A DNA stretch of 63,308 bases, the filler included, from Folioceros fuciformis (Eukaryota), in the NCBI GenBank assembly GCA_049999805.1. It is 7 parts of 7 records of this genome, joined end to end, with 100 filler letters (N's around TTAATTAATTAA, not from the genome) between each part and the next. Parts side by side here need not be neighbours in the genome. Positions count along the whole stretch, not along the records: positions 58,430 to 63,308 come from JBNGIO010004154.1; 6 more parts are not named here. One strand, given 5' to 3'. The notes below the pieces were generated by a model. The model saw only the letters and a list, made by a program, of their open reading frames with translations. It searched no databases and had not been told where the DNA came from. Positions 58,556 through 61,500 of this stretch are shown piece by piece. Position numbers and translations under genes: made by a program. Position 1 is the stretch's first letter, and each line of letters opens with the position of its first letter.

Positions 58556-61500
58556 CTACTTCTTGTTACCCTTGGCCTCTGCCTTTTCTCTATCGCGCTT
58601 CAAATACAGCTTCTCCAAAACCCTTCGTGCTTCACATTGAGGGAAGTTAGTTAAATCGTAATACTCTGAAGCAATATCGACGAGCCTGTCCAACACGGCA
58701 AAGATGTCAGACTGTGAATCAGACTACCATGGAGCCACCAACCAGTTCCACATCACCAGCGAGGGCAGGCGCACAGCAGACGTACCATTCACCGCGCACA
58801 TCAGTGACAGTGCGAATAAAATTCCTGCTCGTTAAAACAAACTCGTTGTAGATCACCCACTCCGGCTTGTGATCCAAACAAGTAGACGGATGTAGGTGTA
58901 CCATCTAGTCAGCAAACGGAATTTTCAGTCAAGATCTCAGACAAATACCGCACGAGTACACCCAGAAAGAACACAAAGGCCATACAGGCAAGGAAAATCC
59001 GCTGTAGTACCTGATTGTCTTTCACTGTTAAATAATGGCCACTGCGTTCCAAGTGAGCAACTTGCATAAAATACCCTGCTAACATGGCCTTCCGAATATT
59101 CGAGTAGTAGTCCCGACTGGAAAAGTCAGTACTGCACATCTTAAGATTGTATCTGTTCATTATGCGAACAAGTTGTCCCCTGACGTTGTCTGCTGATTTC
59201 AGAGCCCGCACATTGATGAAGTTGTCATAACACCAGGTGGCATCCTCATCTGACAGAGACACAGGTTAGGGATGGTTCACAACAAACAATCAAAAAAGGA
59301 AATGACATGAGAACGGTTGGTACATACTGTTTTGCTTGTACGCGTGATACACATTGAGAAGCGTCAAGTGGTCACCATCAATGTGCGCAAACCTAGCCTT
59401 AGCTTCATCGGCGGATTTCTGCGCCTCCTTTGGGCGGAGGAAGCAATTTGGGACTATAGGTTTTATAGACCAATTTTAAGAATGCAACGTTATCACAGGT
59501 GAGGCAGCACGGATGGTCAGCAGACGCAGAGAGGAGAGACCACACGCCGTGCACGTTGTGCGATGCACTGTAGTGCTGCAGCTGTCTGCACCAGCGCTAT
59601 CCTTATCATTGTATCTATATCACGCACCAACCAGACAGCAAGAAGGACTGCGCTTGAGCGCTGCTGAGAAACAACTTGATCATTGGCAAGACACAGAGCA
59701 AGCTCCGGTCTTGCTACCTGACCAGCTAGGCTACTTCCTACTGACAAAACCATTCCTTACAACATGCCTGACTTGTGCATACTAGCAATAGAAGATGGAT
59801 TTTGACAATCTCAAACCACAAACTAGCAACAATACAGCAGGAAACACACACGAGGCAGCAGCATTTGTCTTTCTGAAAAACCCAACTTACATCATGCAAC
59901 AAGGAAAAAATACAGAAAATAGAGTTAATGCTTGTACCTGAAAGCATCGCTGTGATGGAGAGTATCTCATTCGAGCAGTTGAAATCTGGGCTTACAACCA
60001 GCATTTTCGACATCTGAGGGTCCAGTGGAAATTCACTCATGAGCTCCCCAAGCTTCGTCAAATTTCCATCATCATCAAGTGCAGCCAAATAGTTCAACAG
60101 CTCCAAAGCCCTCATCAGAGTCTCCGGAGCAGGAGGATCCATAAAGTCAAAGTGTACAAGATCATCAATCCCCAGCTTCTTCAGTGTGAGCACCACATTG
60201 GCTAGGTTTGATCGCAAGATTTCAGGATATGTCTGAGGTTGCAGGTCGTTCTGAAAGCTCTTTTCTGTGTAAAGACGGAAACATTTTCCAGGCTGTGTTC
60301 GACCAGCTCGGCCAGCCCTTTGATGAGCACTTGCTTTAGAAATGGGGGAAACCAGTAAGGACTCGACGCGGATGCGAGGGTTGTAGACTTTTTGCTTTGC
60401 AAACCCAGGGTCTATAACATAGACTATTCCATCGATAGTCAGGGACGTCTCAGCAATATTTGTCGACACCACAATCTTCCTCCCTGCAGGTCCTCCATCC
60501 TTCGCTGGGGAAGGAGCAGCTTCAAAAATTTTCTGTTGCATAGCTGGAGGAAGAGTTGAATATAACGGCACAACCTTTACAGGTCCAACTTGGTCACCAA
60601 GATTCTGGACTTCTCTCGTTATTTTCCTGCAGGCATCTTCAATTTCCTCTTCCCCAGTAAGGAAGACTAGAATGTCACCAGGTGATTCACAAATGTGAAT
60701 CTGGACAACTGTCCGTATGGCTGCTTCANNNNNNNNNNNNNNNNNNNNNNNNNNNNNNNNNNNNNNNNNNNNNNNNNNNNNNNNNNNNNNNNNNNNNNNN
60801 NNNNNNNNNNNNNNNNNNNNNNNNNNNNCTCTGCCTCCAGGGTTGCACTCATAACTACAAGCTTGAGATCTGGCCTGTTCCTCAACACCTCTTTCAAAAG
60901 CCCGAACAAGACATCCGTAGCCAAGGTCCTTTCATGAGCCTCGTCCAAAATAATGACCCTATACCTTTCTAGAAGGGGATCTGTCATAGCCTCTCTAAGA
61001 AGCATACCATCGGTAAGATACCTGAACAAAAAAAAAAGTCACACCTCAAAGGCATGGGTAAGCCTAGCTGTAGGAAAAGAGCACTGTAAAACAGTCAGCA
61101 CCTCTCAACTCTGAACTGACCAGTGCCTTAAGCCTGCCTACAAAGAAAAGAATTCACACACAGAATTCGGGCACTGACTTGAGAACTGTCTTGGCTCCGC
61201 TGCAGTCCTCGAAACGTATACTGTATCCAACCTCCTCGCCAATGGTCACATCCATTTCCTCAGCAACACGGCGAGAAACCGACATGGCAGCCACTCTTCG
61301 AGGTTGCGTACATGCTATCTGTTTCCTATTCGAGGTGTAACCCGCTTCCACCACAAATTGAGGTATCTGAGAACGATCCACACCAGGACAAGATCAGGCT
61401 TGCAAAAGCTTCAACCTGTGCAAACCAAAAAAAGCTCCCGACTCCCAGAAGCATAGGGAAATCAGTGGATCGCGCTCTATACCTGTGTTGTCTTCCCGCT

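Follow-up and report, generated by a model that had tools for sequence, protein, structure and literature searches.

The window analysed here is a stretch of 63,308 nucleotides, filler included, from Folioceros fuciformis (NCBI GenBank assembly GCA_049999805.1), and its minus strand carries at 58558–61734 a gene for a DEAH helicase of the PRP43/DHX15 type, a long intron of which (59454–59937) is the subject of this report. The host was identified from a 263-residue exon (59939–60727), which was 90–97% identical to plant proteins named DHX15/PRP43 or DEAH2; among the 120 proteins listed, the clubmoss Diphasiastrum complanatum supplied the best named match (97%), with mosses and liverworts next (95–96%), and the matches carried the precomputed Pfam domains PF00270, PF00271, PF04408, PF21010 and PF07717. 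The exons in the window were colinear with a full-length relative of 715 residues. The gene is broken by a 100-N gap at 60729–60828, where a coding part equivalent to about residues 223–256 of the relative L001 is missing.

The long intron begins with GT at 59937–59936, ends with the productive AG at 59455–59454 and interrupts the frame in phase 1 after ...ITAMLS. Its length of 484 nt compares with about 113, 156, 78, 106 and 100 nt for the other PRP43 introns, which are 3–6 times shorter, and the initial annotation had correctly described it as several times longer than these (about 78–157 nt). The pyrimidine fraction in the last 20 nt before the productive acceptor was 0.50, the lowest in the gene (0.55–0.80 at five other acceptors), in agreement with the poor pyrimidine tract noted previously. 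Over 20 nt the same value of 0.50 was obtained for an upstream acceptor found in use (59615/59616) and for the AG at 59741/59742 that had been proposed as the poison site, so that by this measure the proposed site is no better-looking than the productive one.

Splice forms were analysed in contigs of four sequencing runs, of which X1 represents organism A, X2 organism B, and X3 and X15 organism C. The RNA nature of the runs is a guess on record, and they were judged RNA-like solely because their contigs skip four PRP43 introns with GT-AG ends. The X1 sequence was identical to the window, and the exons of organisms B and C differed by 3.3–4.9%. The productive joint 59453/59938, which has CT..AC as its plus-strand ends and skips 484 nt, was present at depths of 87.9 (X1), 44.4 (X2) and 59.2 (X3, in a short contig with a loose end on the other side). 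A second joint, 59614/59938, skips 323 nt with canonical ends (CT..AC on the plus strand) and was present in X1 at a depth of 17.1, with none seen in X2 and X3. It uses the AG at 59616–59615, with the exon running from 59614 (gtgcgtgatatAG/ATACAATG; slashes in nucleotide sequences mark splice boundaries), and includes a frame-shifting, stop-bearing exon extension of 161 nt (59454–59614). The whole unspliced intron was present at depths of 13.5 (X1), 15.8 (X2) and 29.4 (X3). The X1 contig over 59426–59616 had a depth of 41.7, against 13.5 for the upstream intron contig, and the three X1 forms add up to the downstream exon depth of 118.2, so that by contig depth about 74% falls to the productive form, 14% to the alternative acceptor and 11% to retention. 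Non-productive forms made up 25–33% of depth at the long intron, whereas the three neighbouring PRP43 introns had a depth of 0 in X1, X2 and X3. Alternative splicing coupled to nonsense-mediated decay (AS-NMD) calls for an alternative junction or retention in RNA, and both were found at the long intron in these RNA-like contigs. No joints at a cluster of four AGs further downstream (59568–59587) were seen in the X1 contigs.

Both non-productive forms carry premature stops on the minus strand. From 59614 the alternative form reads a 32-residue tail in frame up to a TGA at 59519–59517, and the retained form ends at an in-frame TAG at 59740–59738 after 66 intron-encoded residues. Position 59739 differs in organisms B and C, where the TAG is lost and the next in-frame stop is again the TGA at 59519–59517. 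Three exon junctions (59328/59249, 59011/58904 and 58785/58684) lie downstream of both stops, and in both forms the stops are placed about 190 nt or more upstream of them. In plants, a stop more than 50 nt upstream of an exon junction triggers nonsense-mediated decay (NMD; the 50-nt rule), and because of the position of the premature stops both the alternative and the retained form would be expected to undergo decay.

Contig comparison among organisms A, B and C divided the intron into two parts. The block 59454–59680 (227 nt) was nearly invariant, with at most 3 substitutions (≤1.3%) against each of B and C. The X2 contig over 59426–59967 had 29 substitutions, and among the 27 that were listed only 59460 lies below 59681; the X3 contig over 59426–59843 had 18, and the 15 listed were all at or above 59681. 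Over 59681–59937, X2 differed by at least 26 substitutions and 4 indels, a divergence of at least 10% for organism B. In organism C (X3 and X15), 67 unrelated letters stand where the window has a 62-nt piece within 59843–59906, which illustrates the free evolution of the intron's 5′ part.

Conservation at greater distance was analysed in 80 loci obtained by a metagenome scan with the upstream exon peptide. An intron of 319–621 nt was present at exactly the same codon in 14 of them (L004, L005, L007–L017 and L020; 89–95% amino acid identity), and L002 (98% identity) contained more than 620 nt of intron before the contig end; L003 and L019 stop too early for the intron to be judged. No intron was found at this codon in the remaining 63 loci, namely the cDNA-like L001, L006 and L018 and all 60 loci at ≤86% identity, many of which may be cDNA. 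The rest of the PRP43 gene structure was shared between the window and the plant loci. Third codon positions were 39–57% identical between the window and the plant loci, against 35% for a GC-rich outgroup locus, and synonymous sites are therefore close to saturation. By third-position identity the plant loci represent about eight lineages, one of which (L017–L019) is grass-like, a judgement made by comparing the N-terminus of L018 with a Panicum protein. An intron-less PRP43 copy was also present on a genomic contig (L021:1781–3969), with third codon positions 85% identical to the intron-containing L012; a flowering-plant-like genome appears to carry it as a processed retrocopy.

Despite this distance, the 3′ part of the long intron could be recognized directly by blastn and by a profile hidden Markov model (HMM), which together delimit a deeply conserved core at 59478–59616 (minus strand). 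In blastn the 3′ half of the intron matched 11 of the 80 loci at E < 0.01, and the segment 59545–59478 matched 14 of the 15 other introns at 76–93% identity (E = 1e-13 to 0.009). Searched against the same 80 loci, introns 1, 2, 6 and 7, the 5′ half of the long intron and the 3′ untranslated region gave 0 matches, and control intron 5 gave one 22-nt chance match to an unrelated locus, so that the alternative region was conserved above the neighbouring introns (14 of 15 introns against 0 true control matches), as AS-NMD would have it. The profile HMM recognized window positions 59616–59506 (E = 9.5e-22) and a single site in each of 14 loci, with no other match across 389,553 bases; it was built from 10 sequences, so 10 of its 15 matches are training rows, and L004 was missed. 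Deep conservation of the intron had been suggested in the initial annotation and was borne out, far above that of its neighbours, by this homology search of plant metagenome loci.

Within the core, the octamer CTGCTGAC (59516–59523, minus strand), which holds the premature TGA at 59519–59517, occurred exactly once in 16 of 16 introns (the window, the 14 complete loci and the partial L002). Its distance to the productive AG, which lies downstream, is 43–64 nt in 14 of the 15 complete introns; in L004 it is 143 nt. It fits the plant branch-point consensus CTGAC, and we take it to be a putative branch point. Upstream of it lies the cluster of four AGs (59568–59587, minus strand; G at 59586, 59582, 59576 and 59568), which reads GATGCAG/ATAG/TTGCAG/TTTCTCAG/ in flowering-plant-like loci and GGTGCAG/ACAG/CTGCAG/CACTACAG/ in the window; by alignment and AG positions the two are homologous. 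Between the cluster and the productive acceptor is an AG-free zone (59456–59567, minus strand), which measures 114 nt in the window and 73–90 nt in the 14 other complete introns and is thus long in all 15. It contains a second conserved motif, CTGTGATAAC (59498–59489, minus strand), a form of the CTGT(G/T)ATAA kept near the intron 3′ end in the alignments. The acceptor 59615/59616 aligns with CATAG/G in L005 and L007–L012. A possible cassette poison exon reaching from TTAG/GT to CTAA/GTAAGT in flowering-plant-like loci was also considered; the window has no GT at that place, and no isoform tail inspected needs such an exon.

The initial annotation had proposed a poison acceptor at 59741/59742 (minus strand), opposite a weak productive acceptor, with the PRP43 protein directly controlling the choice between the two. 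That AG exists, and the frame from 59740 runs as described to the stop at 59519–59517; the productive acceptor of the window is indeed poor in pyrimidines, and in human cells DHX15 with SUGP1 has been linked to the rejection of aberrantly used 3′ splice sites and branch points, in the parts of that work available. The AG at 59741/59742 showed no sign of use, however, since no contig in the four runs joins 59938 to 59740. It sits in the fast-changing part of the intron (at least 10% divergence in close relatives), with changes in its flanks at 59739, 59743 and 59746, and it has no counterpart in the alignments of plant loci. Nor is the weak productive tract a conserved feature: the pyrimidine fraction was 0.60–0.80 in 13 of the 14 other loci, and the productive AG has a good tract in all loci except the window and L004. 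This version of the switch is accordingly very improbable. What stands of it is a poison 3′ splice site in the long intron, in that a stop-introducing acceptor and retention were both found; the acceptor is the one at 59615/59616, which gives the same frame and the same TGA stop as had been predicted from 59741/59742.

Truncated isoforms annotated in named plants were compared with the intron. Of the 120 listed proteins, 23 were inspected, each of them either short or without the OB-fold domain, and 19 of these depart from the normal sequence directly after AM(L/I)S. Five isoforms end at the conserved stop with C(V/I)C, namely those of Diphasiastrum (...GVVSPLYVC), Physcomitrium X2 (...LRPLCVC), Ceratodon (...LRSLCVC), Cryptomeria X3 (...GVISNLCVC) and Amaranthus X2 (...GIVSPLCIC), and Jatropha X2 uses the same acceptor with an earlier stop. 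Another frame (...MVSSRLYASADL...), entered from neighbouring AGs, was found in Erigeron, Silene, Rhizophora, Impatiens, Mangifera and two unnamed transcript-derived proteins, and Magnolia X4 begins at a conserved TTAG/GT further upstream. When the metagenome loci were translated from each AG, the tails of the named plants were reproduced and mapped to the conserved AG cluster; L013 translated from GTTGCAG/, for example, matched the Rhizophora tail over 33 residues (score 27). In Cucurbita X4 and Rosa X2 (P0076 and P0083) the acceptor lies inside the next exon, which these proteins read in another frame (GRLRRLL...); some flowering plants would accordingly have one more alternative acceptor, about 25 nt into that downstream exon.

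The initial annotation had also pointed to similar peptides in predicted angiosperm isoforms. Of this peptide, the last residues (...VVSPLCVC) proved to be shared, whereas the QRSSAVL..WLVRD stretch was not; a search of the 79-residue peptide against longer proteins gave 0 matches at E ≤ 0.01, a result of little weight given the shortness of the shared tail. In clubmoss, mosses, conifer, Amaranthus and the window (59517–59545), the alternative open reading frames (ORFs) end in Cys-x-Cys (CVC or CIC). A C-terminal CXC is the prenylation motif of Rab proteins, and the likeness is probably incidental. The tail end shared by the window and the clubmoss, conifer, flowering-plant and (in the form ...LCVC) moss isoforms could be read to mean that the alternative transcripts encode a functional truncated helicase without the OB-fold, ending in a conserved ...SPLC(V/I)C tail, that could be dominant-negative or differently localized. 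In keeping with such a product, the last eight codons show by eye about nine changes, not independent of one another, at codon positions 1 and 3 only. Upstream of these roughly eight codons, however, indels of lengths not divisible by three separate the lineages, the annotated isoforms use three frames and several of them stop elsewhere, and Pfam returned no family for the three intronic ORFs searched on both strands. The frame-breaking indels led us to discard coding constraint on the tail as the main explanation, and a functional truncated protein is considered improbable.

Structured RNA was considered in two forms. As an intron-hosted small RNA, either like a small nucleolar RNA (snoRNA) or otherwise structured, the block would gain some credit from a C-box-like TGATGC and, about 80 nt from it, a D-box-like CTGA in other loci (by eye), and weak Rfam alignments in a search at E ≤ 10 were to C/D snoRNA models. 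These alignments (best E = 0.7–9) are at chance level, and no Rfam family reached threshold in the window or in nine loci. In the window the C box is replaced by TGGTGC and no terminal stem is visible, and a single-sequence fold of 59454–59690 was no more stable than shuffles (z = +0.47). With neither a match to a curated family nor intact boxes with a terminal stem, as expected of an intronic C/D or H/ACA snoRNA, a hosted small RNA is the kind of explanation to which we give hardly any credence.

The second form would be a sensor for the helicase itself. RNAalifold proposed a candidate long-range helix on the minus strand between 59587–59595 (GCTGGTGCA) and 59520–59528 (TGCGTCTGC), the upstream strand of which overlaps the conserved acceptor GCAG/ while the other abuts the octamer. 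The helix would have eight pairs and is compatible with the data: 95% of 80 cells are paired in 10 sequences, and pairing survives the two changes in the window and L002 as G-U. If this helix were opened or proofread by PRP43, splicing might shift to the unproductive acceptors; a precedent is the DRH1-type land-plant helicase gene, autoregulated via a helix over an alternative 3′ splice site according to the available parts of two papers (PMC12218528; bioRxiv 10.64898/2026.01.23.701338). Against such a sensor, no pair was changed on both sides, the alignment held 10 sequences only, the consensus energy was weak (−6.8 kcal/mol), and the single-sequence fold had, as given above, no stability excess over shuffles. 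We therefore hold helicase-sensing feedback through this helix to be doubtful. The corresponding model, in which PRP43 with a G-patch cofactor would unwind or discard complexes at the GCAG/-octamer pairing and excess helicase would divert its own pre-mRNA to the stop forms, is offered just as tentatively. If true, it would describe a DEAH-helicase feedback sensor more than 400 million years old, parallel to the DRH1 DEAD-motif sensor.

A simpler explanation is that the block is a constitutive splicing signal only, made up of a distal branch point and an AG-free zone, and that the upstream acceptors and retention are noise. The fit of the octamer to the branch-point consensus, its spacing from the productive AG in all but one of the complete introns and the consistently long AG-free zone would all be expected from it. 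Conservation nevertheless reaches 60–170 nt upstream of the octamer, over the AG cluster, and the other introns of the gene need branch points too, yet are unconserved. Neither the share of non-productive forms at this intron, set against their absence from the neighbouring ones, nor the annotation in many lineages of isoforms from the same cluster is what splicing noise would predict. As a complete account, a constitutive signal is considered unlikely.

The reading preferred here is that the long PRP43 intron is a land-plant-wide unproductive-splicing dosage switch of the AS-NMD type, which we regard as probable. Isoforms, stops and conservation were observed directly, and the competing-acceptor module yields stop-containing transcripts; NMD coupling and dosage control are what we infer from them. 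The 3′ third of the intron would act as a cis-regulatory module for unproductive PRP43 splicing conserved in land plants, consisting of the alternative AG cluster, the long AG-free stretch with the octamer CTGCTGAC and the second motif, and the productive acceptor. Use of the productive AG would give the full helicase. Use of an upstream AG (59615/59616 here) or retention would lead to an in-frame stop, in the alternative form the TGA in the octamer, and the resulting transcripts would lack the C-terminal OB-fold. By plant NMD rules such transcripts would be degraded or detained in the nucleus, and the choice of acceptor would thereby set the amount of PRP43. Feedback from PRP43 or from spliceosome activity would be the most attractive input to the switch.

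Several points weigh against this reading. The alternative joint was represented by a single contig in a single run (X1), possibly from the same material as the assembly, and in X2 and X3 the only non-productive form was retention; retained-intron transcripts in plants often escape NMD. Contigs lose rare variants and carry one depth each, so the proportions given above are not true isoform ratios, which are not obtainable from them. At the aligned column of the acceptor 59615/59616 the AG is missing in 6 of 14 loci (L013–L017, with L004 gapped), and the annotated isoforms of other plants rely on an AG different from this acceptor. Many of those truncated isoforms are gene-model predictions, and three of the proteins (P0035, P0040 and P0048) look like translated unspliced DNA. 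Finally, the conserved block could partly reflect a distal branch point needed for constitutive splicing.

Outside the PRP43 gene, a second N block (58329–58429) surrounds a linker, ttaattaattaa (about 58374–58385), and looks like an artificial join of two contigs. Composition shifts below 58328, with a GC content of 0.56–0.64 against 0.43–0.50. Degenerate short tandem repeats of gtaggg, ggttg and ggtaag (58268–58328, read on the minus strand) adjoin the N block, and repeats of ctgtc and cctag(c) follow further on, at about 58020–58210.

PRP43/DHX15 disassembles spliceosomes, rejects poor substrates and also works in ribosome biogenesis. Its dosage therefore affects splicing fidelity genome-wide, and a switch of this kind reaching from moss to flowering plants would, if true, be an intronic homeostat of a core spliceosomal enzyme rather than of an accessory regulator. 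The truncated 'isoform X2–X4' models in many plant annotations would then probably be unproductive transcripts, not proteins. The element is compact (about 140 nt), and mutating it would provide a test of the way in which rival units of branch point and acceptor are selected in plants.

Published descriptions of conserved unproductive splicing or autoregulation in PRP43/DHX15 were not found in the literature searches made, although an earlier listing of the block as conserved noncoding sequence is possible; neither PRP43 nor a helicase is mentioned in the main text of Kritsas 2012 and the conserved alternative splicing papers. Both Arabidopsis PRP43 genes are among 7,698 alternatively spliced genes (PMC6581728, supplement), and the ASRG table, in the part of the source available, gives one alternative acceptor for At3g62310 (PMC545797). 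According to the accessible part of a further paper, Arabidopsis PRP43b belongs with RS31, SR30 and U2AF65A to a core of 18 splicing events regulated by light (PMC8547716), and a switch in the long intron would, if real, explain its place among those few core light-responsive events.

The long PRP43 intron resembles known conserved AS-NMD events in having a host that belongs to the splicing machinery, a long alternatively spliced intron, premature stops in the alternative forms, and surroundings of the alternative sites that are conserved across land plants far above the neighbouring introns. It differs from them in that the host is a DEAH helicase of spliceosome disassembly and proofreading, not an RNA-binding regulator, and in that an acceptor cluster with retention takes the place of a cassette poison exon, with NMD inferred and autoregulation proposed. 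Quality control of branch-point and 3′ splice-site choice by DHX15-SUGP1 in human cells could provide a route by which use of the PRP43 acceptors is biased; in the available parts of that work (PMC9894173, PMC12434867) the effects described are trans effects on other genes, and neither a poison site in DHX15 itself nor plant data were found there. The nearest parallel is offered by the DEAD motif of DRH1/RH46, a hairpin backed by covariation and by experiment as far as the accessible text of its two sources goes (PMC12218528; bioRxiv 10.64898/2026.01.23.701338). PRP43, DEAH and DHX15 have 0 occurrences in PMC12218528, and the helicase families differ, PRP43 being DEAH/DHX15 and DRH1/RH46 DDX5-like. 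In contrast to the DEAD motif, the candidate PRP43 helix is long-range and without two-sided covariation, and conservation is mainly of primary sequence. What the two have in common is a land-plant-wide conserved element within a helicase gene (PMC12218528, from the part available).

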